Counted from the stretch's first letter, positions 11,544-53,849 are shown. The stretch: DNA of 64,000 bases from Squalus acanthias (GCA_030390025.1 CM059431.1:142292001-142356000), one strand, 5' to 3'. Notes: generated by a model not told the origin, from the sequence alone. Numbers and translations are program-made.

Positions 11544-11613
11544 ATGGAACGGCCAACAATTCTACAGATAAAGCAAATTTACTACCCAGTTCTCGCAAGC
11601 TTTGGGGCTCCCG
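11544..11613 (+). CDS. Exon 1 of GPR139-like GPCR paralogue A
   Basis: ATG opens MERPTILQIKQIYYPVLASFGAP, then a phase-1 donor G|GTAAGT. IYYPxL is the TM1 start of the GPR139/142 family. The exon is the same length (70 bp) as exon 1 of paralogue B. Confidence 0.85.
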
Positions 11614-12578
11614 GTAAGTCACTGTATTCTGTTGTCTAATAGCTGTTGACTATCTCAGTGTTAATGTAACATATTCCGAACATGTCCTCATTGCAGAGTC
11701 ATTGATCCACCGGGATAAGTCGGTGAAAATCAGCGGGAATTGTACCAGTCCACGAGGCGGCTGAGGACTGTTCTGGTCGCTCGTTCGTGGCAACCGGGCG
11801 CTCAACTTTCCTCCGTAAACTGAGGGAGGGCGAGGCTGATTCCCCTGCCCCTCAAATCGTACATAGATCACTGAAGAATGTGTTGCTTAGTGTCTATGGT
11901 AATCATTTCATCTGTACCGTTGTTTCCTGTCTACTTTAAGTGGATAACTCCTTGTACTGCAGCCACTTCTACCCATCAGAGGACTGTGAAAGATATTTGG
12001 AGCAATAATTGCTGCTCAGGAATCTGCTCCCCTCCCCTCGGCTGCAAAGAACCTTCGCGGCTCCACCAGCTCCCACTCTGTTACCGAGCAGCTCCCTCGG
12101 GGCGATTAGAAATAGAAAAAGCGCAGAGTTTCGACCTACATCGAATGTTTGTCTTCCAGCTGAATGTATTATTTGAATTCATATATTTCCAATAATTGTA
12201 TTTAAATTATATTGAATACAGCTGACTTCTGATGCCGCTCCCGAGATCCCCCTCGTCAATTAAACCGATGAGATTAAATGCAAAATTCCATCGATTGCTC
12301 CCTGCGGCCGCTGTAGTAACTCATCAGATTGGCTCGTTGCATCACATGGTCCCAGACTCATGGCGGGATGGTTTCAGCGCTCCACACTGCAATGGAATGT
12401 GTGTTTGGGTGTATGTACGGGAATCTTCTTCTTTATTGACTGTGAAAATTAATAAATTACAGAACCATCCAAGGTTGCCCTTTACGGGACATTAATATGT
12501 AACTGTAGCATCCCTGCGAGGTACAGCGGCTTGCTCTGGACCGCATCTTTAAAGTGTGAATGGAGCCGGAATGGATAT

Positions 12579-12673
12579 CTGACGAAAGGTTTCAACATGG
12601 AACGTAAACTTTTTTTCCCTCTCCACAGCTAATGCTTGTCCTGCTGAGTATTTCCAGAATTTTCTGTTTTTAT
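12579..12673 (+). mobile_element. Degenerate Penelope-terminus-derived short element with a decayed hammerhead core
   Basis: ctgacgaaagg...ggaacgtaaact...cctgctgagtatttccagaattttctgtttttat resembles 62640-62810. Confidence 0.55.
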
Positions 12674-13125
12674 GCATGAATATAATGTCAATGGCGATAT
12701 CGATGGAGATTGATTCGGGAGAGATGGATCATGGACGCCAGATCCGGAGTCGCTCGTTTTACACTTTCGACCAAAAGTCAAAAATCGCCTCCGTTGAGAC
12801 ATCAGTGCCTGGTTGTCGGTGGTGTTGGGTGTCGCTATCCGTTACCTTTGCCGATACTTAATACGAGCGACCCTACCAGCACCCACCCCTACCACCAACT
12901 TGACACCGTCTGACTGAAGTGTACTGGAAGTACAGCGCCTTCTCAGTCCCTCGATATTGAGTGTTTAATGATTACTTTCGTTTGAAAAGGTCTATTGTCA
13001 ATGTTCGTCTATATAATAACGTGTGCATAACCATCTGTAGGAACACATCGTTCCACCTCCTCACAATACGATGTACGATTTATCCGAGTGTCCCCATTAC
13101 TTACTCTTGTCCCTCTTTCTTACAG

Positions 13126-14057
13126 CGAACCTATTGACAATGGTGATTCTCTCCAGAGGAAAATGCGGTCTTTCCAAATGTATCTCGGTCTACATGGTGG
13201 CCATGGCAACAGCAGATCTACTGGTCATGATCGTCAATGTAATCGTATATCACATTTTGAGTAAACACTTCCCATATTCATTCCTTTCATACACTACCGT
13301 TTGTAAGTTCATGATGTACATGTGTAATGTCAGCCTGGATATGTCGGTGTGGTTTACCGTCTGCTTCACATATGACCGTTTTATTGCTATATGTTGTCAG
13401 AAGTTTAAAACAAAGTATTGCATCGTGAGAACTGCGGCTTCGGTTATAACAACGGTCTCTGTTCTAAGCTATTTAGAGAACATCCCATTTTGGTTTGCAT
13501 ATGAACACAAACAAATGATCAATAATGTTTCCTGGGGTTTCCGCCCCAGTGCGGCCTTTTATTCATCGCCTGCAGGTGTAGCTTACTTCCGCTTAGAAAA
13601 TATTTTGATCACGTGGCTTCCTTTTGTTTTGATATTACTGCTTAATTGTTTGACAGTCAGGCGTATTTTAGTGGCCAGTAGAGCCCGCAGGGGACTCCGG
13701 GGTCACTGCAGTGAGAATCAGAGCGATCCAGAGATGGAGAACCGAAGGAAATCCATAATTTTACTGTTCACTGTATCGGGCAGTTTTGTATTGTTGTGGC
13801 TGACGTCTGCCGTGAGTTTTATAATTAACAACCTAGCCGTGCATCACCGAGGCGATTACATAGATCCAGCTTACATCGCCACTGAAACCGGATATCTACT
13901 GATGTATTTGAGTTCCTGTACAAACACTTGTATTTATGCAGCTACACAAACTAAATTCAGGGAAGAGCTGAAGAAGCTGGTGAAATCTCCTTGGGCATTT
14001 ATTTGGATATTGGTGAAAAAAATGAAAAGTCAAACCAAAGCTTCCTGTCCTAACTAG
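13126..14057 (+). CDS. Exon 2 of GPR139-like class A GPCR paralogue A (spliced product 333 aa, apparently intact)
   Basis: Acceptor ccctctttcttacag|CG. Contains LSRGKCGLSKC, MATADLL (TM2), YDRFIAICC (DRY-like), DPEMENRRKSIILL and NTCIY (NPxxY-like), ending at a TAG stop at 14057. Confidence 0.92.
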
Positions 14058-16539
14058 AGTTAAATTATAGCCCGTGTTCTATTTTAGAATGTCTGTCTTT
14101 CTGTTAGGACGAAAGCAGATTGTTGTTGTGAGAATGAACAGGTATCAGAAACCATTTCCTCCACTTTGTAATCGTGTGTTTGATGTCTGCTGCTTTCCCC
14201 GGTGAACATAATAATTTCCTGCTGAAACAGCGCCCTTCCCGCTCAAGATTCAAAGAGAACAGTCATGATTGAGCTTCAGCAGTGGAGTAGAACTTGTGGG
14301 TGTCAGCGTTAACTGCCTCACACCGCAGACACTGGAAGGAGACGCCCCAGTTTAATTAACAGATACATTTTCTTTAGTGTAGAAACAATGTGTTACAATG
14401 GTGGTTATCTGTAATTCCGTAATCTTGTTGTGAATGTTGCAGGCGCTGGGCTCACCATCAGACTCCGCCCCCATTGTCTCCTGAATCAATAGAACGGGGC
14501 CCTGTCTCCTGACCAGTGTCTAATGATGGAGACAGTAGGAACTTGACTCGTCAATGTGACATTAGACATCTTTGTTCACAGATATTTACTGAAAATCTCA
14601 ACTTGTCATCACAATGTTGGAATGTTATAACAGGGGACAGTCCATTCGACACAATCAGTTCTTGTCGACTGTTACCCGCCACCCGAGCAAATAGTTCCAA
14701 TGACTTCACCCAGGCGGTTTCAACATCCCTTCAGCCTCTTTATATTCAGTCACATTTGCAATTTAATCTTCAATATTGATATAATTTCTGCCTCCAATAT
14801 TTCCGAAGTCTCACAACTCTCCATGTAAAGAGGCTTCTCCTACCTTTAGTTCTAAACTTCGTACATTTATCATTTAATCGCTGGCCGTTAGTTCTTGATC
14901 CTTCAACTAATGGAAGGTTCTGCTTCCATCTATTTAATCCCATCCCTTCTTAACTTGGGTACAACTCGCCAAAAGCTATGAGTCTGGTATCAATGCACAG
15001 TCTAGTTAAAATCAGGAAATTATAGTTAAGATGGTTAGTTGCTAGCTTTCTCTGGGAGATGTTCGTGCCCTTGATTTAGCAGAAGAAAGAAAATAATATA
15101 TTTGATAACCTGGCAAATACACGAAACCTCGTGACGCGTTGTGCATGAAGCAACCAGCATGCTCTATGCGTGATGAAGATACTCTGAGGAACGGATCCAA
15201 AACATGGTCAGTCACGCAGACAACACCACCACATGAAATGGTTATTGTGGCTCTGGCGTGTGGGAACATGTGTAAAAACAATGGATGGAGATCTGCGCAA
15301 TAGAATAGGCCGAGATAGATATATAATGCTCGGGAGATTCAGTGTTCATCTGAAATGCTCTAACGTCAACAAAGATGGCGCTGTAAGGAAAGGGTTAATC
15401 AGTCTAGCCTAACGTATGCTAATATTATACTGTGTTGGTTTCTCATTTTTTGTTTTTATTGTAGTAATCTTAATCTTTAGTATTTTCCTGTTAAGCAGGA
15501 AGTACAATTCTATACAAAGTGCCGCTTGGCTAATGGACCAGAGAAGACCCTGCAACAATTGTCAGTTTCAGGATCAAGTAATAAGCTATTTAATTAAATA
15601 CATATCATTGCAAACAGATTCATCAATTTCAGGGAACATTCTTCCTTTGGTAACAGTTTGGGAAGAGAGTTAGTTTTGCTAAGGAAAACATCGGGACATC
15701 CATCATCATTTTCACATAGTACGGTAGATACAGAACAGGCAGTCTCGGTATTAAAGTTTTCACTTGGTACCATAGCAATTATATGAGTGAAACTATCTTT
15801 AAGATAAATGAATTAACTTATCTTTACGTGGAGTTTTATTTTAAGTTTGATATAATTGTGAGGATTTTAAAGTACCGGGAGTGAGAAAAATGAATAAAAA
15901 CTAACAGTTTTGAATAAGTATTCGGTTTGGTAAAGGCCTACGATACTGAGCTCAGGACAGTGACATTTTTGGGTCACCACCCAACCATCATCAGGTGTGG
16001 TTCTAATGTTTATCTTTTAAGTGCGTGTGTAAGGACTATTACATGTATTATGTGCTTAATAAACCTATGGCACCTCACTCCAATGTTCAAGAACATTATT
16101 GAAAAGCTTATGCTGACAATAGTAATTGTACTTTAATTGTGAAAGGGCTTTATTTATTAACGGTGACTTACACTCAGCTTTACCCGTCACTCTTTAACGT
16201 TCCACTTGACCCAGCCGTTCTCCAAAACCAAAATGCTCTTGGTTGCAGGGCCCCGTGGAACACAGCCTCTGGGAAATTGCTCATTCGCTGCGGGCAGTTC
16301 TGTGTAACTGGCATATTCTCATTTAGCTGGATTCAGGCGGCCAACAGTATTTAAGGCACAAGTCAGGCAGCAGGCAGAGGTTTTAATTTCATCAGTCAGC
16401 GATGTTCTGCACCCAGATAGAATCGTGAGAAGGGGATGTGTAATCAACCACATCATCCAAAAATAACATGTAAAATAAAAAGCAAAGGCATGAATAATTA
16501 ACCATTACATCACCGTGTCATATTCAATCTGATGTGGTT

Positions 16540-17005
16540 GTGATTCGCCTGTCCCCCGTTTCTAATTAACCAGTTGTTGTATTCCCTTGTGTTTCTCTAT
16601 TTCTAATTAAACAGTTACTGTGTTTCCCTGACATTCCCGTCTCCTCTATTTCTAAATAAACAGTTATTGTCTCCCTAGTCCCATAGTTCTAAAAAAAACA
16701 GTTATTTACTGTGTTACCCCATGTCTCCTTTTATTATATTTCTAATTAGACAGTTAGATTATTACACTGAATTCCCTTGTCCTCTATTTCTAATTGACCA
16801 GTTGCTATCTCCCCAGTCCCCTACTTGTAAATGAAGGTTTATTGTGTTCTGATGGTCCCTATTTCTAATATCAGTTACTATAATCCACTGACCTCTATTT
16901 CTAATTAAACATTTACAGTGTTCCACTGAATACTCCTTTATTCTATTTCTAATTCTGCTTCCCGTGTTCCCCTAAACTCCCCTGTCCTCTAGTTTTAATT
17001 ATGAA
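16540..17005. repeat. Degenerate tandem repeat with core ctatttctaattaaacagtta
   Basis: The core recurs about every 40-55 bp. Confidence 0.75.
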
Positions 17006-17494
17006 GATTAGGAAGGAATCCTGTTCCATAGATAGACAGTCGCAACTGAAATAATGTTTCCAGAGATTAGTTTGAATTTACCTCTTCAATCTCAGGTCGT
17101 GTCCTCTGGTTCTACTGTTCTGAACAAGGTTAAACAGCTCGTCATGGTCCACCTTATCGAGTGAATTAAGAGCAGTGTCTCGCACACATTCAGGTCCCGG
17201 ATATTCCTGGGACCTTTGTGTGTTCGTCATAGGATTTGTTAACATGAAAAGAGTTATTAAACTTCAGGTGCTGAGGTCAACAGTTTCAGTGGTTTACATA
17301 TTTCAATTCATGATCGAACAGCCTATATCTCAGGCCTGGATATAATACAAAGCAGACTTGTCCTGTTACTAAAATTTCACTATGGAAATCTCACATACTA
17401 ACATACTCTACTTCACTGCAAAGTCGCAAAAATAAACGTTGTGAGTGGCCCGCAGGATTCCATTCGATTTAATGTTTGATGAGTAAGTTGCTAG

Positions 17495-18800
17495 ACGTCC
17501 ATTCAATAAGGCTGAAGGAATGTTGGCCTTAATCTCAAGTGGGCTGGAATACAAAGAGGAGCAAGTTATGTTTCAGTTGCAACGAGGCTTGGTGAGACCC
17601 TATCTGGAGTGCTTCATTCAGTTTATGGCACCGCACCTGAGGAAGGATATATTGTCTTTGAGGAGGTGCAGCTTAAACATCGCCTTAAATATTGAAAACT
17701 AACAGAGGCACGGACGGGGGATGAACACGCGCTCTGCGGTTTATAAGACCGTCTGATTAACGCTGGATCACAGCAACACCTCCACGCATCATCAGTGACC
17801 CCGGACATAATACTCCAGGTGCCACACTCCAGATGCCAAACATTTGCAATGTTAGTTTCTGAATTGATCTTCCGCCACACGGAGCTGGAGTTCTGATTGG
17901 TATTCGTTACTTCTCTAACTTCCCTTAAAATGCATTAATGATATTCGCCTCAACTTACTCCATGTGGTAGCGAGTTCCACATTCTAAACACTTTCTGGGA
18001 AAATAGTTAATCCTGAATTCCAACTGGTTTTATTAGTGACTATCTTATATGTATTAATTAGCACTATTTCGGATACCCCACAATCATAAATATTTTCTCT
18101 ACCTCTACCCACCGATAATGCTGGATCCTCCATTACGTCGTCCCTAAGCCTTCTCTTTTCTAGAGAAAAGGTTCCCTGCCTGTTCTGTCGTTCTTGACAG
18201 TTATAACCTCTCAGTCAAGTAGATTTTTCCTCGTTTGTTTTTTTCACCACCTGCCGCAAGCCCAGTCTTGTTTGCACTTTCTCAGTACCTCTATATCCTT
18301 TTTTGTAATATTGAGTCCAAACTGAGCCCAGTATATCAAGTGTGATCTAACCAATGTTCAATACAAGTGTAATACAACTTTATTGTTGGAGTATGTGGCC
18401 ATATTATTCCTCCTCCCAAAATAAAACACCACACGCAATTTTATATTGAAATTAGATTGGCATGTACACTCCCATTCTGTATGTTTTTTACCATCTTACT
18501 GTATGTTGTCGCAGTATTCTTCAGCATTAACTAAAACTGCCAATTTGGTGCCAATCGCAAATTTGACAGTCCAATTCAGATTATTGAGACCAAAAAAAAT
18601 TGTACAAATGGTGAACACAGTGGTCCCAGCACCGATCATTGTTGAACGTCACTTCCGGCCTGCCGCCAGTCTGAGGAACCCCCACTCTCTGTTTTCTTTG
18701 TCGCCAGTTTGTTTTCAATTCTGCTACTTGTTCCCTGACTCCACATGCGCGAATCTAGTCTCGATCTACGATGTGTTACCTAATAAAAGGCCTTTTGCAA
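17495..18800. mobile_element. CR1-type LINE fragments (plus ~17495-17700, minus ~17920-18800)
   Basis: GLEYKEEQVMFQLQRGLVRPYLECFIQF on plus, and the reverse-complement RT-domain and 3' sequence on minus. Confidence 0.7.
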
Positions 18801-18969
18801 ATTGAGTGGAGTGGGAGACTCAATTTTTCAGGATCACGTCAATGGATTGGGAAAGTTAATGGACGAGGATCTGTCAATAGATTGGGATAGTCAATAGACT
18901 ATGATATATAAATGGATGAGCGCTGTCGACGATTGTAAACATCAACATTATCAGAAACAGCAGCAGATT

Positions 18970-19260
18970 ACGTTAGCATAGTGGTAACGTTTCTGGCATA
19001 GAAATCCAGAGGCCTGGGCTAATTATCCGGAGACGTGAGGTCAAATTCCTCCGTGGCAGTTTGTGAATTTAAATTCAATTAAATCAATAAATCTGGTATA
19101 TAAAGTTAATACTTTTATTGGTGGCCATGAATCTATCAGATTGTCGTAAACACAACCGGTTAACTAATGCCCCTTATGGAAGGACACATGCCATCCTCAC
19201 CTGCTCGGTCCTAAATGTGTCTCCAGACCCGAAGAAATATATTGCCCTTAGAAATGGCCT
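18970..19260 (+). mobile_element. tRNA-head SINE
   Basis: A-box-like tagcatagtgg and B-box-like ggtcaaattcc. The 5' end is shared with the fragment at 60975-61045 (atccagaggcctgg...atccggagac). Confidence 0.55.
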
Positions 19261-19379
19261 AACAATCCAATCAGTTGTATCAAACCGCTGCAAAAATAGA
19301 ATAAAATCGGACAGACCACTAGGCATTAGATTAGGACACGACAAGGATACGCCCAGCCCAGTCAACCATGTAAGATCCT

Positions 19380-19905
19380 CCTCACTGACATCTGGGGACA
19401 TTTGTCAAAATTGGGAGAGCTGTCCCACAGACTCGTCAAGCAACAGCCTGACACAGTCATACTCACAGAATCTTACCTTTCAGCCAATGTCCCTGATTCC
19501 TCCATCACCAAGAAAACCTCCATCAGATTGCCACCTACCTCAGAAGATGAATTATTACTCCTCCCTGTTGAATACCACAGGACACAGAATATACTCTGGG
19601 TGGGGGAGTTCAATTGCCATCACTTAAAGTGGCTCGGTAGCACCACTACTGACCGAGCTGGCCGAATCCTGAAGGATATAGCTGCCAGACTGAGCATGCG
19701 GCAGGTGGTGAGAGTTCCAACACGAGGGAAAAACCTACTTGAACTCGTCCTAAATAAGACCCAGTAGCAACTCTCCATGACATAATTGGCAGGAGTGACC
19801 ACCGCACAATGTTTGTGGAGAAGAAATCCCGTCTTCACACAGAGAACACACTCCACCATGTTGTGTGGCACAACCACCGTGCGAAATTGGACAGATTCAG
19901 ATCAC
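19380..19905 (+). mobile_element. Non-LTR retrotransposon APE endonuclease fragment (CR1/L2 group)
   Basis: KLGELSHRLVKQQPDTVILTESYL...VGEFNCHH...PTRGKNLLELVL are APE endonuclease motifs. Confidence 0.8.
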
Positions 19906-20049
19906 TCCTGCCTTTCACCCAATTACAGAGCTTCCTTTTAGTCCCCTCCCCACCCCCCCAACTCTTCCTGGCTCTGTACTTGCTTAAAACCTGTTACATC
20001 TCTATGATGCAAAATGATCGACCTGAAACTTTAACTCTGTTTCCCGGTA

Positions 20050-20940
20050 GATGAGACACACTGCAACCTCTGTGCGTTGATCGTGGAGGGAGTGAATGTT
20101 AAAGGTGCTGGTTGAGGTGCCAATCCAGCGGGCTGCTTTGTCCTGGATGGTGTCGAGCTTCTTGAGTGTTGTTGGAGCTGCACTCATCCAGGCAAGTGAT
20201 GAATATCCCATCACACTCCTGACTTGTGCTATTCGATGGTGGAAAGGCTTTTGAAGGGGAGTCAGAATGTAAGTCACTTGCCGCAGAATACCCAGTCTCT
20301 GACCTGCTCTTGCAGCTGCAGTATTTATATGGCAGGTCCAGTTAAGTTTCTGGTCAATGGATATTAATGGTGGGGGATTCGGCTATGGTAATAACATTGA
20401 ATGTCAAGGGTCGGTGGTTATACTCTCTGTTGTGGGAGATATTCATTGCGTGGTACATGTATGGCCCGAATTTTACTTGCCACTTGTCAGACCAAGCCTT
20501 AATATCTTCCAAGTCTTGTTGCATTCGGGCATGGACTTCGTCATTATCTGAGGAGTTGTGAATGGCAATCATCAGTGAACATCTCGACTTCTGCCCTTAT
20601 TATGGATGGAAGTTTATTGATGAAGCAGCTGAAGATGGTTGAGCCGAGGACACTGCCCTGAGGAACTCCTGTAACGATGTCCTGTGTCTGAGATGTTTGG
20701 CCTCCAATAACCACGACCAGCCAACGTTGTGCTCGCTATGATTTCCCTTGAGTCCCGTTGACTTCAGTTTTACTGAGGCTCTTTGATGCCACACCCGGTC
20801 AAATGTTGCCTTGATGTCAACGGCAGTCACTCTCCCCTCCCCTCTGGAATTCAGTTATTTGTTCCATGTTTGGACCAAGGCTGTAATGAGGTCTGGAGCC
20901 GCGTGGACTTGGCGGAATCCAAACTGATAGCACTGTCGAT
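20050..20940 (-). mobile_element. Non-LTR retrotransposon RT fragment (CR1/L2 group)
   Basis: AVDIKATFDRVWH, MQQDLEDIKAWSDKWQVKF, QVRSVMGYSSLAWMSAAPTTLKKLDTIQ. Confidence 0.8.
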
Positions 20941-22153
20941 GACACATGTCCGAATGGCCTCATTCTGTGCTGTAATATTCTATGATCCTCAGATTCTATG
21001 ATTCTATGACTCCGGTCTCTTCACACTACAAATAGTTTGCCATAACCTGTCCTCACTGCCTGGAATTTCCTTCCCAAAACCTTCCGTCTCCTCCTTTAAG
21101 ACGCTCCTTAAAACCTTTATCTTTAAGGAGACTTTTGGACAAACGTTTTAATAGATCCTTCTTTGGATTGGGCATCCATATTTTTGATCACAACTCTATG
21201 AAGCGCATTGGAAGATCGCCTGGAGTGGGGAGGGTGCCAGGGTTTATCAACCTGTGTGGAGCACTTTACTGAACACGTGTGTTTGTGTCTGTTTGTTACA
21301 TTAAATAAATGAGGGCAGCTGGCGCTTCTCTCCCTAACATTGGGGAACTAGTGAGAAAGATTTTACAGCAAGGTTCTGTTTATTGTGAAAAAGCAGATAA
21401 ATTATTCTTCCGGAATTATCCAGACTACAATCAGCGCTAAAAATAAGCTGAGATCCTGATGTGATTTGAAGACGCAGTCTTTTTGATCCAAGAAATCAAA
21501 CGCTCTTCCGATCCGCCAAGAGGTCTCCGTTTGGATAAACGTTGGGGATGTTTCTATATATCAATATATCTTAAACACCGTTTCATTCTCCCGCAGAAGC
21601 AACACAACACAGAAAATAAACCAGGAAACTGCTCAAAACACAGAACAGGTCGAGCAGCTTTTGAAAAACAGTTAAACTTTCGGTGTTTAGACAATAGTTA
21701 GAACTGTAAACAAGGCCGTGTGAAAATATAAACTGTGGGTGTGTATATAGAATCATCGAAAATCACAGCACAGGAGGACATTCGGCCAGTCGTGCCTGTG
21801 ATGGTTTAGAAAGAGCAGCCTTGCTTAGTCCCACACCCTCGCTTTTTGTCCCTAACCCTGTAAGTTCCTCATCCTCAAATACCTGTGCAACTCCTTTTAA
21901 AATTATTGCTGAATCAGCTTTCATCATCTATTCATGTCGAGCGTTCCAGGTCCCGACAACTTACAACATATGTTTGGAATGAAGGCAGATGCCCCCCAAT
22001 AAATGAATAATTATTACAGATACATGTAACTACATCTGCAAGCAGCATATTCATGAATTGCATTTACTTGTGAAACAAGTCCAAAATCAATTTGCATCTA
22101 AAACGGATAGACCCAATTATACTTAAAGTTATCCCAACGATTCTTTGCCACGT

Positions 22154-22226
22154 TCCCTGTTGATCTAATGGTCAGGATTCGGCCCTTTCGCCGCTTTCGG
22201 CTCGGGTTCAATTACCGTTGAGCGGA
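22154..22226 (+). pseudogene. tRNA-Glu(TTC) pseudogene
   Basis: TCCCTGTTGATCTAATGGTCAGGATTCGGCCCTTTCGCCGC...GGGTTCAATTACCG aligns to vertebrate tRNA-Glu (TCCCTGGTGGTCTAGTGGTTAGGATTCGGCGC...) with many stem-breaking changes. Confidence 0.8.
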
Positions 22227-22589
22227 TTGACTCTTACAAAAGTTGTTAATTCAAAGCCGTATCATATTCACTACATGCATCCAATGTGAAAATAATGTTG
22301 CAATTGTCATTAATTAACAGGTAAGTTTCGATTGCAGAATGAAAGAAGGGACTGAGGGACAGTCGAAGCTTCAATAATTTAGTCTGCTCTTTGCATGTGA
22401 TGAACATTTATCCCTATCTCATTTTATACATTGTATTTTGGAGCCTGGTTTGCAATGTTCTGTGCTTATGACTCCTGGAATCTGGTGCAACATTTGTTAA
22501 ATTTAACAGGAATTGCTATTTCACTAAAAAATCATTCTCTAACACAATGTTTTCAGAAAATACACTGACCTGTCTTTCTGAGGTCCAAA

Positions 22590-38414: not shown

Positions 38415-40085
38415 AAAAAGAGAAAATGCTGGAAATACTCAGCAGGTCAGGCAGTATCTGTGGAGAGAGTAACAGAGTTAACGTTTCAGGTCGATGACAC
38501 TTCGTCAGAACTGGAAAAAAGCTGGAGATGTAACAGATGTTAAGCAAGTGTAAGGGCAGGGAAAGGAGGGAGGGGAGGAAAGAACAAAAGGGAAGGTCTG
38601 TGATAAAATGGAAGGCAGGAGAGATTAAGAGATTTAAAAGAGATTGACAGATGATGCAAGGCAAAAGGAGATAGTAATGGGACAAGTTAAGAAAAAAATG
38701 ATGGCTCTAGATGAAGTGTAAGTGGCACTGGCAGAATGAAAGACAGCTGCCATGTGGGAGAGAGAAAAAAAATGGAAAAAAAGGATAGGGGCAGAGTTTA
38801 TGGTCTGAAATTGTGGAATTTATGTTCAGTCCGGAAGGCTGTAAAGTGCTTAATGGAAAGATGAGGTGCAGTTCCTCGAGCTTACGTTGAGCTTCATTGG
38901 AACAGTGTAAGAGGCCGAGGACGGAGAGGTCAGAGTGGGAGTGGAGCGGAGAATTAAAGTGACAGGCCACAGGAAGCTCGGGGTCAACCTTACGGAATGA
39001 ACGGAGGTGTTCCGCAAAGCGGTCACCCAATCTGTGTTTGGTCTCCCCAATGTATAGGAGACCGCATCGTGAGCAGCGAATACAGTATACTAAATTGCAA
39101 GAATTAAAAGTAAATCGCTGTTTCACCTGCAAGCAGTGTTATGGGCCCTGGACAGTGGGAAGGCTGGAGGTAAAAGGGCATGTTTTGCATCTCCTGTGCT
39201 TACACGGGAAGGTGCCGGGCAAAGGGAAATGGGTGTTGGGGGTGATAGAGGAGTGGACTAGGGTGTCGCGGAGGCAGCGGTCCCTTGGGACTACTGAAAG
39301 GGGAGGTGAGGGGCAGATGTTTTTGGTGATGGGATCACGCTGGAGCCGGCGGAAATGATGGAGGATGAGCCGTTGAATGTGCAGGCTGGTGGGGTGAAAG
39401 ATGAGAAAAAGTGGAACCCTATCCTGGTTCCGGGAGGGAGGGGAATGGGTGAGAGCAGAAGTGCGGTAAATAGAACGGACTCGGTCAAGGGCCATGTCAA
39501 CCACAGTAGAGGGGTATCCTCGTTAAGGAAAAAGGAAGACATGTCGGAAGCACTGATATGGAAGCTGTCATCGTCAGAGCAGATGCGGCGGTGATAGGGA
39601 AACTGGGAGAATGGAATAGAGTCCTTACAAGAATCGGGGTGGGAGGAAGTGTAGTCGAGGTAGCTGTGAGAGTCAGTGGGTTTGTATGCGAATGTTTGTC
39701 AATAGCCTATCCCTTTGAGATGGATTCAGAGAAGTCGAGCCAGGGAAGGGTAGAGTCGGAGATGGAGATGTGAAGGTGAGTGAAGTGTGGAAATTTTAAG
39801 CAAAGTGAATTAAATTTTCTAGTTCCGGTCGAGAGCAGGTAACAGCACCGATACAGTCATCAATGTACCTGAAAAAGAGGTGAGGGAGGGGACCTGATTA
39901 GGACTGGAACAAAGAATGTTCCACCTATCCCGCGAAAAGGCAGGCATAGCTGGAACCCATGCGGGTTCCCATAGCAACACCTTTAATTTGGAGAAAGTGA
40001 GTGGAGTCAAAGGAGAAGTTTTTCAATGTGAGAACATTTTCAGCCAGGCGGAGGAGGCTGGTGGTGGACGGGGACTGTTTGGGCC
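38415..40085 (-). mobile_element. Penelope-like retroelement (RT C-terminal part, GIY-YIG endonuclease, 3' terminal repeat)
   Basis: Minus strand has FLQIKGVAMGTRMG and RYIDD RT motifs (~39860-40010) and the GIY-YIG motif NLVYCIRCSRCGLLYIGETKHRLGDRFAEHLRS (38707-39132). A terminal hammerhead is present. Confidence 0.9.
38476..38512 (-). ncRNA. Minimal type I hammerhead ribozyme motif in the Penelope terminus
   Basis: AGUU CUGACGA AGUGUC AUC GACCU GAAA CG UU AACU. Core is intact, with stem I AGUU/AACU and a one-base bulge in stem II. Confidence 0.75.
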
Positions 40086-42347: not shown

Positions 42348-42403
42348 AGGCATGGACGGGGATCGAACCCGCGCTCTTCGGTTTACAAGAATTACGCACT
42401 CTA
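42348..42403 (-). pseudogene. tRNA-Thr pseudogene, 3' portion (TGT anticodon in a Thr-CGT-like body)
   Basis: Minus strand TCTTGTAAACCGAAGAGCGCGGGTTCGATCCCCGTCCATGCCT resembles tRNA-Thr(CGT) TCTCGTAAACCGAAGATCGCGGGTTCGAACCCCGTCCGTGCCT. The 5' end is lost at a CR1 junction. Confidence 0.7.
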
Positions 42404-43387: not shown

Positions 43388-43460
43388 GTGGGGGATGAGG
43401 ATTTGTACCCTGGACTCTCCGATTAAAGGTCTGATACTCTACCAATTGAGCTATCCGGGC
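43388..43460 (-). pseudogene. tRNA-Lys(TTT) pseudogene
   Basis: Minus strand GCCCGGATAGCTCAATTGGTAGAGTATCAGACCTTTAATCGGAGAGTCCAGGGTACAAATCC. The B box is mutated and the 3' acceptor strand is lost. Confidence 0.8.
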
Positions 43461-43544
43461 TCTTGTCAAACCAGCGTCACTAAAGGACCTTCACTGCTTG
43501 CCCTGCATCATTACACTCTCAGATAAATCATTCAAATATCATGC

Positions 43545-44770: not shown

Positions 44771-45049
44771 AATGTCTATTGGCATTCAGGGGTTAGGTGC
44801 ATTGACCAAAAATCATTCGATATTTCAAAAACTAAACATACAGCTCGCCGAGGGAAACATGAGGTTATCAGGTGAGGGCTGCCGAGGGTGTGTACTTATT
44901 TACATCTTGATAATTAATAGTAAGTAATTGGCACATGGACCAGAGAGGAGTTCATGCGTTTTTTAATTAAATATCGAATAGTTCTGATCTGGAATGCATT
45001 GTCCAAAAGGTTCATGGAAGCTGATTCAATAATAACAAAATAAAGTCTT

Positions 45050-45485
45050 GCCTGTATACAGCACGGTTCACCACCTCAGGACGTCACAAAGCGCTTTACA
45101 GCAAAATAAGTATTTTTGAGGTGTGGACACTGTTGTAATGTTGGAAGCGGGACAGCCAATCTGTGCACAGCAACATCTCAGAAGAGCAATGAGATAATGA
45201 CCACTTAATCTGTTTTAGTGTTGGTTGAGGGATGAATATTGTCCGGGACACTATGGAGACCGCCCCTGCTCCTCTTCGTAATAGGGCTGTGGGATCTTTT
45301 ATGTCTTGCTGAGAGCTTGGCTTAATGTCCCATCCGAAAGACGACAGCTCCGACAGTGCAGCACACACTCAGCACTGCACTGAAGTGTCAGCAGAGATTT
45401 TGTGTTCAAGTCTCTGGAGCGGGCCTTTAACCCACTGCCATCTGATTCAGAGGCGAGAGTGCCAACACAGAGCCACTGCTGACAC
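45050..45485 (-). mobile_element. Deu-domain SINE (SacSINE1/AmnSINE-like)
   Basis: cctcaggacgtcacaaagcgctttacagc...atccgaaagacgacagctccgacagtgcagcac. Related copies lie at 9540 and 57000. Confidence 0.65.
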
Positions 45486-48362
45486 CCTTATAAAAATAGC
45501 AACTTTCAAAAGGGAACTGGATATTTACTTGAAAAGGAAAGGGTTGCTGGGCTGTGGGGAAAGAGCAGCGGAGTTGTACAAATATCAGAGAGCCGCGTGA
45601 GACACTATAGGCCGCATGGCCTCCTTATGTGCTTTCTGATTCTATGATTCTAGGCCGCTTATGTTGCCCGCTCATTAATGTGAATGGAATGAAAGCTGAG
45701 GAAACGCTTCAATAATTTTCTGATAAGCCGCCCGCAGTGCGTGTGAGATTGCGGCCGTGGGGCAGGTCTGGGAGATCCCAGCGCTGGAGTAGACAAGCGG
45801 AAAGTAGTTGACGAATAAAAATGTATTCATCCACTTAAAAGATAATAGGAGGCACAGTGGGCTCCAAGTCATTATGTCGGGAGCATTGTTAAGAATTAAG
45901 CGAAAGCTTTTTAATTATCTAACGAAACTAGCAGGTAGATAGCAAGGACTAGCAAAGGCCGTTTGGTAAATATTCGAGTAGAACACAAGGGAATCATTGC
46001 AGGAGTGCTTGCAACAGCGGTTTCTAAATGTAGTTACAGTTTTCAACCACATAACATGGGAATCTGGAATCCAGGGACCCAGACACCGCGAGATAGAGGA
46101 ATGGGGACTGACAGGAGTGACGGTTCACTGACACTGTTGCAAGTTTCCACAATTAGAGAAGATTCCTGAGGATCTGACAGCAGCTGAAATAATCCTAGTG
46201 TTTAAAATAAGGCCAGGGCAGATCCAGTGGGTGAGCTCCTGGGAGAGGAGCAATATAAAAGGGAATTATATTGGTTTGAGGAACGATGTGTTATCTTTAA
46301 CCTACCTGCTGGAGTTTCTGAAACACATCACTGGCCTGTAGGGCAGGGGAAATGCAGTGGGAATGACCCAGTCTGATTTTAACGAAGCAGCGGAAAAGGT
46401 TCCACATCTACAAACGGTGAGGAATTATGGGATGGGTGGGAGATCTGGCACTGCACAGACAGCTCATTACAAAATGGAAGTAGGCTATCGACAAATGGAA
46501 ACCTGTAAGGGAAGGGTGACTATTGAACGTCTGGGATCTTCTTTGCTACCAGTTTATATTTAATGTTTTGTTTAATCGAATCTCAACGGGGATGAGGGTA
46601 TCTTAGAAACAAAATAAATGATAATGAGGCCAAAATATGTAACTCTATAAAACCATAGATATTGGGTGCGAGTGCTCATATCACCCATTCTCTCTCTACC
46701 AGGTTCTTTGAAACAGCAATCAAAAACTATCCGCACTCTCTTCCACTCTCTCCACAGATATTTGATTTCTCTGCTTCAAATATTCATCTAATTTCCCCTT
46801 AACTATTCCCTGAGGCAAAACATTCCATGCTCCAGCAACCCTTTGAATAAACGCGATTCTGCTAACCTCTCTGCTCAGTTCCTTTGTGACCATCTTAAGT
46901 CGACCGCCCTTTATCGCTGATTAATCGACTAGGTGGAATGAGACCATCCTCTTCACTCTGCCAAAACTTTTCATACTTTTTAAAAGCTCTATTAAATATA
47001 CTCTTAGCTTCTGCTGCTCTACCGTAAGTTGACCCAATATCTTGTCCCTCATCATCAGTATATTTATGATCCATGGCACCACCCTGGTGCATCGACACTG
47101 CCCGCTCGCAGTGGATTTAATGTATTTTCCACAATGAGGGGCCGAAGCTGTACCCGCTGTTCCAAAGGTGGCCTCACCAGTATTTAGGAAAGATTCATCA
47201 TCACTTGATTATTCTTGTGATCTATGTCCCTGTCCCTCAAACACCAATTTATGTTTGGTTTCTCATGGATTTATCCACCTGAAACCGCAGTTTCTATGAA
47301 TTCAGTATTTGGATACCTATTGCTCGCAGTCCATCCACACCCTATAGCTCCTTCTCACACTCTTCAGCTCCCGTTCCTTGGCGCTTCTCGCTCAATCAGG
47401 CGAGATCACCGATGAACAATTTGTAATTGATTCAAAGTTGCTGATATTTTTCAATTACCTTTTGGAACAATGTGGAACCGAATAATAAGACATTAATGAC
47501 CAAAGATTGTTTCTGACCGTCTGCAAATGTTCAACCAAATACAGAATACCTACTATCAGTTTGATTTTATCTAAATTTCTGCAAGTGTTTTATGTTGACG
47601 AGAGTTTGCATCAATTGTAATAGTTAATAACTATATGAATGATCATTAATTTTTACATACCTTTACCATTTTGTTTGGGACACTGATTGAGAATGAATAT
47701 CAATAATATTACTCATGATACGTTTATCGACATCAAAAAACATGAGCAGACTAATGTGCTTTGTGCTGAGTGAGAGACACCAGTCAGTGTACAATCGAGA
47801 TTTAAATCAATATCTGGGAAAACAGGAGAAAGGTCACATCGATGAGCCGAGTTCCGACAGCTTCCTCCATTCGAGCATTGATCACGTGACTCTATTTTTC
47901 AATGAGGAATGGAGTCCGATAGAGAGACCCGCGCCTGCAATACTCACACCAAACTTCCAGGAAAGTTACTAATATCGGCGATCGCAAGACCTTTAATTGT
48001 TTCGGCACTACATGAAATTGATGATTTTAAAGTGGCGCGCCTGATCGCAGTACCTGCAGTGTGAGATGGATTCCTCTGTTTCCCACATGTCCGACTCCAC
48101 TGCTGCACCTCATCATTGTTATCTTTGATCCCTGAACTTGAAATGTGCTAACTTTGTAGGAATAGGTTATGTTTACTCAACGAAAGAAGAAAACCAATGT
48201 AAAGCAGACATCAAACGTATGCTACAAAATGGAAGAAAGATTCACACAAGAACTCTCCCATTATTCACATTACCAGAAAGAAGGACACTCAACGGTGGAA
48301 AAGGAGCTGAAAAGGAGCTTTAGTTACGAAGAAGCTTGCATTTGACTTTATTATTTTTCCTC

Positions 48363-49266
48363 TCATTTTCCAGCTAATCTCAGAATCAGTGTACAGGGAG
48401 ATTTCAACACACTCTTCAGTTCTTCTCTGAATTTCCGCTGGGTCGCTGCATAAATACACGTGTTTAGACAGGAACTCAAATACTTCAACATTGCTCCGGT
48501 TTCAGTCGCGATATATCCAGGCTCTGTGCCGTCGAATCGGTAATAATTTGTGCTTGACAGTCTGGTAGTTACCAAACTCACGGCATTTGTCATCCACAAC
48601 TGTATAAAACTAACTGATACAGTGAAGAGTAAAATGATGGATTTCTGTCGGTTCTCCGTCTCTGGATCACACTGATTCTCCCTGCTGTGACCACGGAATC
48701 CCTTTCGGGCTTTATTGGCCATTAAAATACGTCTGACTGTCAAATAATTAAACAAGACAATCAAAGTAAAAGGAAGCCAAACAACCCAGGCGCTGTGAAA
48801 CCAGACGTAGGCTACACCTGGAGGTGAAGAAAAAAAGAGATACTGGATCGGCAGCCCCACTGCACCTTGTTAATTATTTGCTGAGGTTCAAATGCAAACA
48901 GTACAGGTATATCCTTTAATAAGATCAGGACTGAGAACGTTGTTATAACCGCGGCCGCAGTTCTCTCGGTGCAATGCTTTGGTTTGAACTTCTGGCAGCA
49001 GATAACTACAAATCGATCAAATGTGAAGGAGACGGTGAACCAAACAGACAAATCGAGGGTGACAGCAGTCATGTATAGAATGAACTTACACACGGGAGTC
49101 TGGAATAGGAATGAAAATGGAAAGTGATAACTGAAAATATAATACACTACAACATTGAAGATCATGATCAGTAGATCTGCTGTTGCCATGGCCACCATGT
49201 AGACAGAGATACACTTGGAAAGGCCGCAGTTTCCTTGGGAGAGAATCACATTTGTCATCAAGCTCG
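48363..49266 (-). pseudogene. Exon 2 of GPR139-like paralogue B, with a single frameshift
   Basis: Acceptor tctctttcttacag|CG. ORFs 48812-49261 and 48363-48860 are the two halves of one 7TM receptor. The frame changes at the A7 run at 48830-48836. Confidence 0.88.
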
Positions 49267-49693
49267 CTGTAAGAAAGAGAGAGGAGAGAAATAATGTTAT
49301 AATGTCTGATTAAAATATATATGGAGATACATGGGGAGAGCATTTTACTCCGTTGAGTGTGATTATCCACACGGAGCAGTGTGAGAACAGGATTAGTATT
49401 GGAGCCATTGGAGCCACCCACACATTTTAATGAGCTGCTGCAGCGCTCACTCTGCACGGGGTGACAAGACGGTCCGGAAATCCGCTAAAATCCTTGTGTT
49501 GGACCTTCAAAGAACATCGTAAAATGAGTAAGGATTGAGGGGAATGGGGAAAGTGTGGGTGGCGAATCACGTGTTTGTCCGGGTAACTACCGACTGTGCT
49601 GACATCAGGGAAACACGTTACCTTATCCAACAGGCTGTAAGAACAGGGAGACAGTAAACACCGATTAATAACAAACAGGTTACAATGGCTCAC

Positions 49694-49763
49694 CGGGGAC
49701 ACCGACGGCCGCGAGAATCGGGTAGTAAATCTCTTTGATCAGCAGTATAACTGGTCGCCCCGT
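49694..49763 (-). pseudogene. Exon 1 of GPR139-like paralogue B, with the start codon reading ACG
   Basis: ACG GGG CGA CCA... encodes (T)GRPVILLIKEIYYPILAAVGVP, then G|GTGAG. It is 70 bp and colinear with paralogue A exon 1. Confidence 0.8.
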
Positions 49764-50399
49764 TTTCTGTGAGAACGGTGAATTCTGTCGGAGCTGAAAG
49801 ACTCTGACTGGCGCACGGCTGAGGCAATGGAAGGGAGCCTATATTTATTCGCACATCAATCCTCCAGGGAGACAATCAGGCTACATCATTATAGCATTAG
49901 TTACAGTCATTTAACAAATAGACTCAGGTTAGTGTTTTGTTTTTATCAGATACACCGACTTCAGGCAAATAGTTGAAATGGTTATCGGACAGTTTAAAAA
50001 CACATTATTTACAAATGGAAAGTGGAATCTCCCAGTACTGATGCTGAGCCTATTCCTACAGGACGGGTGAACGCATCTCCCCCTGCAGTAATCGCCCTGA
50101 CCCAGGCCTCACCCCCAGTGCCCAACTCCTCCCGAACAGGCGATCAGCCTAATCCTGTCAGCAACCGGGCAGCGCCATAGAGCTTAACCATTTCCTTATG
50201 TTTATTTCTAATAAAAAGTATTCCTTGATGTATTTTTCAGTGGTAACCTGGTGCGATTTTATTAATACAGCCAACTGGATTATCAGCTGGAATAAGCCTT
50301 TTTACTAAGGGTGTCCAGTCCTCCACCTGTGGGTAACATGATTGAGAATCACTGAAAATGACTTCAGAAACGACACTGAACCTTTTAATGTTACTTTGG

Positions 50400-51095
50400 T
50401 CCACACGGTGGTAACCGATTTGTGGCGATCTGCTGCCGGAAGTTCAAAGCACAGTATTCCACCGAGCACTGCGACTGCCGTTTTTCCATCTGTCTCTGTC
50501 TGGACCTATTTAAAGCGGGTCCCCATTTATATTTCACATGAACCTGAGCGAACAATGAACAATGTGCAGTGGGTTTGCCGGATAACTGCGGACTTTCTTA
50601 CTGCACCCATGGGCAGCGTACAACTTGGCCCGTATTACCTCAGTCGCATGGCTTCCCGTCATTTTGACGGCACTATTTAATTATTTGACAGTCAGACGTA
50701 TTTTAGTGGTCTGTGGACCCAGCAGTGAGAATCAGTCTGATTCGAAGTTTGAGAACCGAAGGAAATCCATCATCATACTCTTCATTATATCCGGCAGTTT
50801 TATAGGAAAATTGGAACATATACTCTTATGGATCACAGCTGCCGTGCGGTTTTAACTACCCGAATGATAACCACCATGTATTCCCAGGGCGATTACACCA
50901 GTCCTGTATCGATCACCACTCAAGCCGGATTTAAGCTGTTGTATTTGAGTTCCTGCAAAAAACACCTGTATTTAGGCAGCGACCCGGAGGAAACTCAGCG
51001 AAGAGCTGCGGAATGTGGTCAAATCTGCCAGGACACTGATTCTGAGATTGTTTAAAAAATGAAAAGGAATGAAGTCAAACTAAAGCTTCCTTTTC
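50400..51095 (+). pseudogene. Degraded GPR139-like paralogue C (TM3 to TM7 only)
   Basis: Fragments LFNYLTVRRILV, SENQSDSKFENRRKSIIILF and SQGDYTSPVSITTQAGFKLLYLSSC lie in shifting frames. Confidence 0.85.
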
Positions 51096-51199
51096 TAATC
51101 TGAGCTCAATCTCAGCCCGTGCTCCAGCGGAGAGGGGCTTTCTTTCGGGTTGTGACAGAATGGATAGCTCTTGTGTGAAACCTCACAGGTATCAGAATT

Positions 51200-51965
51200 T
51201 TTTTTAACAGAGTCTAAATGGGGGAGAGGTGCAAAGGGGTCTATGGGTACAGAGTCACAAATCATTGAAAGTAACAAGGCAAGCTAACAATCGCATACAA
51301 ATGTAAACCAAGCACTGGAACTCATTTTACGATAAAAGGATCCAAAAGCAGAGAAGTTATGTTGAACTAATACGGAACCTTGGTCAGACCACACTGGGAT
51401 TGCTTTGAACAATTCTGGTCTCCATATTACGAAACGGGGATCGAGGCACTTGAGAAGGTGCAAACAGATTTTACAAGGATGATACCGTAACTGAGAATGT
51501 GCAACTATCAGGAATGACTGAACAGGCTGGGATTCTTTCCTCTGGAAAAGATAAGGCTGAGGGCTGACCTAATGGATGTCTTTCAATTATGAATGGGTTT
51601 GATCGGGTAGACGTAGAGAAGATGTTTCCTCTTGTAGAGGAGTTCAACAAAAGAGGTTTAAAATATTGGATAATCACTAATAAATCCAATACGAAATTCA
51701 GGAAAAGCTTCTTTACCCAGAGAGATTAGAATGTGGAACTTGCTACCACATGGAGTTCTTGAGCCGAATATGTTCTTATGTTAATAGATGCATTTAAGGG
51801 GAAACTAGAAAAGTCCTTGGGGGAGAAAGGAACAGAAGGATGTGCTGAAAGGGTTGGGTGAAGTCTATGTGGGAGTAGGCTTTTCTGGAGCATAAAATCG
51901 ACATAGATACGTTGAACGGACTGTCCTGTCCTGTGCTTTAATTTCTATGTATTTCTATGTAATTT
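51200..51965 (+). mobile_element. CR1-type LINE 3' fragment inserted in the 3' flank of paralogue C
   Basis: ccttggtcagaccacactgg...ctttacccagaga, with a ttctatgt-repeat tail. Paralogue flank homology resumes after it. Confidence 0.8.
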
Positions 51966-53849
51966 CTTCTGTTTTGTAGGAGCCGTTTGACATCTGCTTT
52001 CCTAGCGTTTTCTCGCTTCTTTCGTCGAGTGATCATAATTTTTTCTGGTAAATCAGCATCTTTTAACCTGAAAATTCAAAGAAAACAGTCATGATTGAGC
52101 TTCAGCTGTGCAGTGGAACATGTGAGCATCAGCTTCATCTGTCTCACGCCGCAGGTCCTGGAATAAGACATGGCAGATTCATTGATGAATACAACTTTCA
52201 TTAGTGCAGAAAATATCAGGGGCCTTTCATCGTAAGTATTTGTCACTGCTCTGGATGTTTGGTGAGAATGATGCAGACTCCGGTCTCCCCTTCATATCCC
52301 ATTGTCTCCTGGACCAATAGAACGGGGCCTGTCTCCTGATCAGTGTCAAATGATGGAGAGAATAGAGAATTAACCCGCCAATGTGACGTTAGTCATCTCT
52401 GTTTACAGATACTTACTTAAAATGAAAATGTATCATTGGAAATTGAAGTTTGCACGTGATTGGCTCTGCCGCTAGCGGCTAAAGGAGTCCTGATTGATAT
52501 TCCGGCAGGAGTCAGTATTTCCAAATAAAATTGGTCAAATATGTAAAATAAGAATACATTAAAGTAAAATTAATCGTGACGACATTTGAGGCAACAGATT
52601 TGCAAAAAGTTACTATCAAAATTCCTATATCAGATTGATGTTAAGCAGTCGGAGTTTACCTGAACCTTTATATGTCACATATAAAGGATATTTGTGGAGT
52701 TTTGTTTGATCTCCTGGACAGACATTGTTACAACTCATTCAAAACATGTCACCAGTTTGAATCAGTTGCTATTTGTTCACAGTTGTTCTACCCTGACATT
52801 CTGGTATGAATAACAAGGGGTGGGAACAAGGTCCTAATGGAAAGAAAGCCGAGGATGAACAGCGAGACCTGGGGATTCAAAGACTTCATTCCCTGACAGT
52901 ACGGGTACAGATAGTAAATTTACAATAAAAGCAGCAGGGATTCGGTTTGACGGATTGGGACATTGAGCACAACAGTAACAAGTAAAGATATGTTTGGCGA
53001 GGCTTTGGTTCGGCCACAGTTAGAACACGAGCTGCAGCTTTGGCCACTTCATTATAATTCAGCCCAAAGAGCGGCGCTCCCCACAATGATGTCAACGTCC
53101 TGCGGAGTCTCTCCGTTCCATCCCAGGCAACGTCCTGTCCTCACTGAGTTACACTTTGCGGCTCTAACAGTGGAACTCACTGCGGGAATTGGTACCTGGT
53201 CATTCTGTCACCTCACACTGCATCTTCATTCATCGCAGAACATGGACAATCCCCACAGATCACAGCAGGTGCAGAGTTAAATTAGCGCGATATCAATTAA
53301 CAGTTTGAGGATTGTAATCAATTCGATTCTGACCACAAAATATGATTTGCAACTACAAATCTGAGTATTGTGTTCGAACAAGTCCAGTTACACATATAGG
53401 CCCTGATATAGCGGTCGTAATGACGGCGAGGCTGTCAGCCCTGGCCATTGATACTTGGTAAAATTGAAGGCAAATCTGGGGTCCGCACATGCGCAGTTCA
53501 ACAAGGAAATCCAGAAGCTGATGTCAGAGATACTCGGCTCCACCACAAGGAGCGCTGTTGCAGTCTTCGCCGATGGAATTAACACAAAAATCAGTGTTAA
53601 AGTGTGAACTTAAACCAATTATCCACTGTTCTCGGTCTAAATACAGGTGAAAAGTTAAGCAGGCCGAGCTCTGCAGCGCGGAGATTGGAGCAGTCTGTCC
53701 GTTTAATGTTCACTCAACAGCCTTAAGTTACGACCTGTAATCCTGTTCCAGTCTCCACAATCATTTATTTCAGTTTCACAGGAAGCCGTTTAGCTTATTA
53801 AACCGCGACCGGCATGAACACGGAGGGCAGATTGCTGTCAGCATCAGCT

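Follow-up and report, generated by a model that had tools for sequence, protein, structure and literature searches.

We analysed a window of 64,000 nucleotides (nt) of Squalus acanthias DNA (GCA_030390025.1 CM059431.1:142292001-142356000; 43% G+C, with many retroelement fragments and satellites; positions are counted from its first letter) that carries three related receptor loci, here called A, B and C. Gene A is a class A (rhodopsin-like) G-protein coupled receptor (GPCR), and all three loci belong to a large and ancient family of two-exon receptors of this class in cartilaginous fishes. Their ligand pockets vary over a conserved scaffold, and the repertoire may work in chemical sensing. The receptor loci and the elements beside them are the following.

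11544-11613, + strand: gene A exon 1, 70 bp, phase 1, from ATG to a GT donor; homologous to exon 1 of B
13126-14057, + strand: gene A exon 2, class A seven-transmembrane (7TM) receptor; spliced product 333 amino acids (aa)
11388-11466, + strand: promoter-like region of A, with a 25-bp motif at 11388-11412 and a TATA-like word at 11460-11466
10211-11168, + strand: 26-bp tandem array (Tandem Repeats Finder, period 26, 35.4 copies), ending about 375 bp upstream of the A start codon
49763-49694, - strand: gene B exon 1, of 70 bp and phase 1, with ACG for the start ATG
49266-48363, - strand: gene B exon 2; a single 1-nt deletion lies near 48842-48830, next to a T7 run
50377-51197, + strand: pseudogene fragment C, from transmembrane helix 3 (TM3) on, together with the first part of its 3' flank; tblastn E 4e-29
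52015-52423, + strand: remainder of the 3' flank of C, shifted by an insertion of about 820 bp

Gene A and its broken relatives

The two exons of A, separated by an intron of 1512 bp, give a 333-aa frame without a stop, and exon 1 resembles the N-termini of annotated shark relatives. The only Pfam match across A, B and C is 7tm_1, which A reaches at E 8e-19 (68.5 bits against a cut-off of 30.5); the gene is thus intact, as a previous reading of this DNA, made from the sequence alone, had said. An AlphaFold model of exon 2 (predicted local distance difference test 91) places the helices as in a 7TM bundle, and the model matched class A receptors in a fold search with TM-scores of about 0.7. GPR139 was not singled out by that search, standing at rank 6 among near-equal class A matches. 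The microswitches are present as N1.50, D2.50, DRF at the D/ERY position, W6.48 and NTCIY at the NPxxY position, with T at P6.50 and P7.50 as in most family members. In A the cysteine of the second extracellular loop (ECL2; region 13560-13580) is replaced by F, and TM3 has an additional C at 3.32.

The 25-bp motif upstream of A is identical at 23 of 25 positions to 49918-49894 upstream of B, and this motif and the TATA-like word may act as a promoter. B also retains one 26-bp unit of the tandem array, with 8 mismatches, at 50064 on the - strand, about 300 bp upstream of its exon 1. The upstream region of B is otherwise occupied by a repeat and by fragment C, and this sole degenerate unit lies at a position matching that of the array of A.

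Gene B has the exon layout of A, with an intron of 427 bp, and no stop over 319 aligned codons. No in-frame ATG lies between exon 1 and the nearest upstream stop that could rescue the ACG start. The lost start and the 1-nt deletion, which might be an assembly error in the T run, make up the two lesions counted for B previously. The coding part of C (about 50377-51098) is without exon 1, has lost the first ~100 codons, and shows several indels, with 3 stops among the codons that align; it is as fragmentary as described. C and B are arranged head-to-head, and the mixed orientation of the three loci (A +, B -, C +) was also correctly described. A first exon of 70 bp in phase 1 is common to A and B in length and phase, while the two sequences are homologous, not identical as "the same" exon had implied. 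A and B share 75% of nucleotides and 64-65% of amino acids, with a synonymous divergence (dS) of 0.61, a nonsynonymous divergence (dN) of 0.23 and dN/dS of 0.37. B probably remained under constraint over most of its history and was broken late.

The 3' flanks of A (14189-14596), C (52015-52423) and B (47800-48360) align at about 70-73%; for C against A the identity is 72.7% over 418 columns. These values exceed the identity at synonymous sites (54-58%), local alignment being known to inflate such figures, and they hint at a constrained 3' untranslated region.

Size, age and spread of the family

Statements on the family at the level of genomes rest here on the proteins of other species. In a search with the A protein, 1863 of 4797 candidates reached E<=1e-10. 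The best 120 of these 1863 are all from elasmobranchs (14 species), at 49-73% identity to A; by a hand tally, 33 are from Pristiophorus, 29 from Heptranchias, 24 from Heterodontus, 14 from Scyliorhinus and 20 from nine other species. The remaining 1743 may include non-shark relatives. When proteins were clustered at 50% identity, 101 clusters reached E<=1e-30. The taxon was looked up for 29 of the 150 clusters listed: all 19 strong ones (E<=1e-49) are chondrichthyan, one being from Callorhinchus milii, and the 10 weak ones comprise coelacanth, salamander, teleost, amphioxus, nemertean and five without a taxon. Since the one Callorhinchus protein is nested in a FastTree tree of the family, the family is probably older than the split between chimaeras and sharks and rays. 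Related loci were also sought in metagenomes, where none of 85 pattern matches was confirmed.

The three loci had been read as a recent local duplication series. However, the closest genes in other species are 75.5% (A) and 79% (B) identical, against 65% between A and B. In a tree of 39 rows, which covers A and B, A groups with genes of Heterodontus, Rhincodon and Carcharodon at 100/96, and B falls in another subfamily at 100/100. Forcing A and B to be sisters was rejected on the same rows (approximately unbiased test, p-AU 1.4e-5, with the bootstrap not fully settled). Given that A and B are nearer to the genes of other sharks and that their sisterhood was rejected, the loci do not represent a fresh local triplication, and the separate subfamilies, shared with other shark orders, together with a dS of 0.61 contradict a recent series. 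Recent blooms at the level of species are present elsewhere in the family. The broader proposal of a large birth-and-death GPCR family was upheld by the many paralogues, the pseudogenes, the lineage-specific blooms and the subfamilies that cross species. Its description as lineage-specific is right for cartilaginous fishes and wrong for Squalus acanthias alone.

Ancestry and relation to GPR139

Among the solved receptors in PDB, human GPR139 is the best match both for A (E 1.8e-9) and for the family profile (E 4.5e-22). A mixed profile scored GPR139 at 119 bits against 92.5 for the next receptor, and a profile built from chondrichthyan sequences only scored 81.6 against 63.8. This explains the automatic name "probable G-protein coupled receptor 139". 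The same chondrichthyan-only profile gave 82 bits for human GPR139 against 235-260 for five amphibian proteins, 229 for a coelacanth, 213 for a teleost, 190 for a shorter sturgeon protein and 142-153 for amphioxus, the GPR139 chain in PDB being a fusion and its score coming from a separate run with the same alignment. GPR139 (PDB 7VUG, 9M42) is thus more distant from the family than the amphibian, coelacanth, teleost and amphioxus relatives. It shares W6.48 with A, but it has D and a shorter loop where the shark family has C3.25 and a long ECL2. Judged by these scores, the family of A, B and C is not orthologous to GPR139. It is assigned to the broad GPR139/GPR142 superfamily and, by the same comparison, is taken to derive from the GPR139/GPR142 branch, with GPR139 as the nearest characterised receptor. 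The mammalian GPR139 and GPR142 genes, previously offered as direct comparators, are therefore poorly suited to that use, with GPR139 at 82 bits and the amphibian gene at 235-260.

Of 1675 candidates for a salamander query protein, 25 were hits: 20 amphibian clusters, each from a different genus, 1 from sturgeon and 4 from elasmobranchs. No amniote or teleost was among the 25, in a word-indexed search in which absences are soft. In a tree of 36 rows the amphibian/sturgeon gene joined the chondrichthyan family at 93/97, and monophyly of the chondrichthyan genes was not rejected (p-AU 0.32). A query with TM6-7 of the amphioxus protein, aimed at vertebrate GPR139 and GPR142, returned only 3 amphioxus hits among 8 candidates. 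The amphibian/sturgeon gene (Pleurodeles XP_069092602.1, Acipenser RXM35349.1) is automatically named GPR139-like, and its amphibian members score highest outside the chondrichthyans. It has a basic motif of the third intracellular loop and TM6 in common with the shark family, is about 30% identical to A and occurs apparently in one copy per genus. It is likely the bony-vertebrate counterpart of the family, conserved and apparently single-copy, an assignment that is favoured but not settled. The amphibian receptor carries an unusual S1.50 and N2.50 alongside a GPR139-like pocket.

The coelacanth and teleost orphans (XP_005988539.1, KAM4562537.1), at 213-229 bits on the family profile, form a separate clade at 100/99 and have S at 6.48 and R at 6.51. 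They may be GPR210A/B. Orphans near GPR139/142 in gar, coelacanth and fishes were given those names by Rinne et al. 2019 (PMC6504862), and the word "shark" is absent from that paper.

A variable pocket on a conserved scaffold

In mutagenesis of GPR139, F109, H187, W241 and N271 proved important for its activation, and Trp and Phe were found to share the site; R244 was modelled as a contact, and H187A was not measured with Trp or Phe (PMC5430874). Mapped by counting from conserved motifs, the residues of A at F109(3.33), H187(5.43), W241(6.48), N271(7.38) and R244 are N, E, W, Y and S, so that A retains one of the four residues of the Trp/Phe site, W6.48 only. Among the 120 close relatives F3.33 occurs in 6, H5.43 in 50 and W6.48 in 116, and N is outside the seven commonest residues at 7.38. 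All 21 amphibian sequences have F3.33, Q5.43, W6.48, N7.38 and K6.51, which are three of the four GPR139 site residues. The idea that aromatic amino acid sensing was inherited from GPR139 is thus not supported, with one residue of four in A. The variable shark pockets fit a diversified ligand repertoire and not specifically the sensing of aromatic amino acids, and the ancestor of the shark family may have had Trp/Phe sensing.

Sequence entropy was compared between positions, with every row kept. In the 120 close relatives the mean entropy was 1.90 at 30 pocket positions, 1.37 at 56 outer non-pocket positions and 0.82 at 105 inner positions (pocket against outer, p 0.002), and in 46 diverse members it was 2.49, 1.97 and 1.19, respectively (p 0.005). 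The 21 amphibian sequences gave 0.09, 0.48 and 0.51, with the difference in the opposite direction (p 0.0008). The pocket is thus the most variable part of the shark paralogues and close to invariant in the amphibian gene. In the 120 relatives R3.50 and Y7.53 are present in all and P6.50 is T in 113. Pocket variability over a conserved inner, G-protein-facing half supports a predicted system of many different ligands and one shared signalling face.

These data bear on two further explanations. The expansion could be largely neutral, with one or a few copies keeping an ancestral job and the others drifting in a recombination-prone region. Two of the three copies in the window are broken, A is without the ECL2 cysteine, P6.50 is replaced by T in most relatives, and the region is rich in fragments of long interspersed nuclear elements (LINEs) and in satellites. 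However, dN/dS between A and B is 0.37 at a dS of 0.61, subfamilies such as that of A with Heterodontus, Rhincodon and Carcharodon (100/96) lasted across shark orders, and the variation is concentrated in the pocket instead of being even, so a largely neutral expansion is improbable. The second explanation is internal peptide or reproductive signalling, with endogenous aromatic, seminal or pheromonal peptides as ligands. The wider GPR139/142 superfamily favours aromatic peptide ends, and the protostome receptors for MIP, sex peptide, proctolin and FMRFamide, the sister group of GPR139/142, have aromatic-peptide ligands (PMC8557429). The amphibian gene, with F3.33, W6.48, N7.38 and a basic residue at 6.51, would agree with such a role. 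A retains only W6.48, however, and hundreds of divergent pockets would require a matching diversity of peptides, which makes this explanation more improbable still than neutral expansion. A repertoire of receptors for external chemicals is the reading that we continue to prefer.

Transcription in Squalus acanthias

Three sequencing runs of the same species, the type of which was guessed and which carry no tissue record, were searched. Contigs of paralogues, short and nearly all at 80-95% identity, were found in all three. In run X1 one such contig (depth 3.4) passes from 49267 directly to 49699, apart from 4 intervening letters; the net gap of 427 nt equals the intron of B exactly and gives outside support for the exon model. 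Family members are therefore transcribed and spliced in Squalus acanthias. Some contigs reached a word depth of about 155-160, in two of the three runs, although short contigs may pool several paralogues.

This depth is relevant to the possibility of an immune repertoire, in which leukocyte or mucosal receptors, like FPR or MRGPR, would bind microbial or damage-derived peptides or metabolites. Unless the samples are sensory tissue, about 155-160 exceeds what would be expected from sparse sensory neurons. All evidence at the level of the family (size, clusters, diversification of the pocket) applies to immune receptors too, and cartilaginous fishes are reported to be without MAS1-related receptors (PMC8455134), which would leave the role of those receptors vacant. 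On the other hand, the runs have no tissue record, the depth may reflect pooled paralogues, and GPR139 is the closest solved receptor (82 bits) with chemokine receptors behind it (about 60 bits). We consider an immune function unlikely, though next in rank to chemical sensing; the split between the two is a matter of judgement and not a result.

A possible role in chemical sensing

Chemosensory and FPR/MRGPR repertoires form clusters of mixed orientation with pseudogenes, species blooms and a variable pocket on a conserved scaffold. The shark family resembles the OR, TAAR, V1R/ORA, V2R and FPR/MRGPR repertoires in this genome behaviour, but it is of other ancestry, as it matches 7tm_1 only, has peptide receptors as neighbours in PDB and has a coding intron. 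The catshark has been found to possess 2 OR, 6 OR-like and 32 V2R genes (PMC11979771), and with so few OR genes another large sensory family would have a gap to fill. The ancestral gene would have been one gene of the GPR139 branch, surviving as a conserved copy in amphibians and sturgeon. In cartilaginous fishes, copies would be born and lost as cassettes of gene plus promoter in a repeat-rich cluster; after duplication the pocket would be retuned many times, so that each paralogue might recognise its own small water-soluble molecule or short peptide and signal through a shared G protein. Some subfamilies would be retained across shark orders and others lost. At its weakest step, the proposal is that sensory or barrier epithelia (those of nose, skin, gill, mouth and gut) might use the repertoire as an array for chemical sensing.

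Several points weigh against this proposal. In A the ECL2 cysteine is replaced by F; C is kept in 110 of the 120 close relatives and F is found in 7, which suggests that the usual disulfide was lost or rearranged in one subgroup. The 30 pocket positions follow generic class A numbering, and the p-values of the entropy comparison are indicative only, since neither sequences nor sites are independent. The variability of the pocket would fit immune or reproductive repertoires equally well. With respect to ancestry, pairing of the chondrichthyan family with the coelacanth/teleost group was not rejected (p-AU 0.061), and the trees are without human GPR139 and GPR142. In the three runs no contig matched B or C at >=99% and next to none of the words of A were present, which is no evidence either way on expression. 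The catshark OR, TAAR and ORA genes are mostly not olfactory, and the top-50 list for catshark "brain & olfactory epithelium" holds no GPCR gene (PMC11979771); the family would be hidden from such a list if expression per gene were low.

Taken with these points, a function of the repertoire in chemical sensing, in sensory epithelia, seems to us close to evenly balanced, on the side of doubt. The fuller proposal is doubtful as yet: that cartilaginous fishes may possess a fifth, unrecognised family of chemosensory receptors, larger than their V2R set and grown from a gene of the GPR139 branch. Equally doubtful is its counterpart for bony vertebrates, in which that gene would have stayed as one conserved copy (amphibians, sturgeon) or been lost.

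tRNA-like loci between A and B

The sequence-only reading had also described a decaying tRNA cluster between A and B. With standard tools, ARAGORN at default settings and Rfam both call one tRNA gene in the whole window, Asn-GTT. The window was then cut into 2842 tiles and scored against 54 library tRNAs, drawn from 60 metagenome loci, with the best score of a reversed-window control, 40.5, as the threshold for counting. Nine loci exceeded it, with scores of 145, 82.5, 80, 75, 57.5, 55, 48 and 47.5 and, marginally, 41.5. They are confined to 21.4-43.5 kb, in the interval from A to B, with none elsewhere in the window.

21450-21523, - strand: decayed tRNA-like locus, marginal; ARAGORN -ps90, score 41.5, best library match Arg-ACG
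22154-22226, + strand: decayed tRNA-Glu-like locus; 54/73 matches, score 75, 47.3 bits
24684-24756, - strand: decayed tRNA-Val(AAC)-like locus; Rfam 25.9 bits (gathering 29), 55/75 matches, score 80
28418-28491, - strand: tRNA-Asn(GTT), near-intact; ARAGORN, Rfam 57.8 bits, score 145, T-run downstream
29499-29573, - strand: decayed tRNA-Ser(GCT)-like locus; 52/77 matches, score 57.5
30552-30619, + strand: decayed tRNA-Val-like locus; 48/74 matches, score 55
30870-30946, - strand: decayed tRNA-Glu-like locus, ends approximate; 35/50 matches, score 47.5
42350-42400, - strand: 3' half of a tRNA-like locus; perfect B-box, 36/52 matches to an Ile tRNA, score 48
43393-43460, - strand: decayed tRNA-Lys(TTT)-like locus; Rfam 25.5 bits, score 82.5, 59 bits, 80.6% over 62 nt

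Only the Asn locus passes both the ARAGORN default and the Rfam gathering score; it is identical to library Asn tRNAs at 74 of 76 positions, with substitutions in the D stem and the anticodon stem. The marginal locus at 21450-21523 scored 39 as a tile and exceeds 40.5 only in a window set by hand. This locus is putatively Trp-like and the half at 42350-42400 putatively Thr-like, the library containing no Trp or Thr tRNA. At least eight of the nine loci are decayed, so a decaying cluster is real, and the seven loci counted previously were a reasonable number, if slightly low.

Relaxed ARAGORN settings were discarded as evidence: -ps80 gave 13 matches in the interval, where 30 Markov controls gave 14.0, and -ps85 was likewise no better than chance. 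Candidates at 36124-36187 and 55139-55183 scored 40, under the control maximum, and a -ps95 "Leu" at 38793-38885 lay outside the top library tiles, beside retroelement open reading frames; none of these three was counted. The loci are unlikely to be heads of one family of short or long interspersed elements, given their matches to different tRNA types; the two Glu loci are the only ones that resemble each other. The latter are carried by an inverted duplication of ~600 bp (21962-22551 against 30615-31138, about 70% identical). LINE-like fragments begin at 42397, abutting the tRNA half, and at 43514, ~50 bp from the Lys-like remnant.

It had been suggested in addition that tRNA-rich DNA may have helped the receptors to multiply. 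All nine loci do lie between A and B, and the human extended major histocompatibility complex (MHC) offers a precedent: a tRNA array of 157 loci beside histone and olfactory receptor clusters, adjoining immune genes, for which hitchhiking was suggested (PMC2776167). As in the window, tRNAs of mixed types there are interspersed with a multigene family of receptors, but the window has nine loci, at least eight of them decayed, and no MHC or histone gene was seen in it. The homology among A, B and C extends over the gene, the 25-bp motif before it and roughly 0.5 kb of the 3' flank, with no tRNA-like locus within it; the closest lies 4.9 kb from B and 7.4 kb from A. Furthermore, the tRNA types are mixed and have a duplication of their own, and the basis is one window, in which the nine loci, forming one cluster, are not independent draws. 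A driving role of tRNAs is thus highly improbable, and the decayed cluster looks like a co-resident neighbour of the receptor genes and not their evident cause. The 26-bp array upstream of A is the better candidate for part of the duplicated unit.

Other features of the window

At 1584-1650 on the - strand lies what is probably an exon of an EHD/dynamin-like GTPase gene, with a P-loop (GNHSAGKS), no Pfam match and a weak Atlas lead. Further satellites lie at 2434-7149, 35492-35926, 53850-55600 and 56240-56848, with periods of 28 (169 copies), 67, 55 and 62, respectively. Segmental repeats of unidentified nature, 0.6-0.9 kb long and 67-73% identical, occur in 33975-38417 (33975/36166/37815 and 34966/36782).

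Significance

The family genes are annotated in RefSeq under automatic names, and the repertoire is apparently undescribed in print. Judged by title and the start of the abstract, and with most subscription papers outside the coverage, the literature on GPR139/GPR142 and sharks and on shark GPCR expansion gave none on the family; a search for shark tRNA clusters likewise found none. Neither "shark" nor "cartilaginous" occurs in a review of GPR139 (PMC12208981), and PMC12294341 has GPR139 only in a reference. The whale shark paper, which reports a paucity of GPCRs in cartilaginous fishes, has one GPR142 orthogroup line and no GPR139 in its 24 supplementary files (PMC8455134).

The window itself is an ordinary corner of the family, and the tRNA link adds little. 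Shark genomes have been described as poor in GPCRs and olfactory receptors (PMC8455134, PMC11979771), and at least 101 clusters at 50% identity under one automatic name run contrary to the picture of GPCR-poor sharks, whatever the tissue in which they work. An immune role would make it a new set of pattern-sensing receptors in the oldest jawed lineage, and a sensory role a new family of vertebrate chemoreceptors from a peptide-receptor ancestor. The conserved amphibian gene makes the question of how the shark pockets diverged testable. Were a fifth chemosensory family to prove true, it would account for the wide chemical coverage of animals that have a handful of ORs, and the amphibian copy would reveal the ancestral ligand from which to start.

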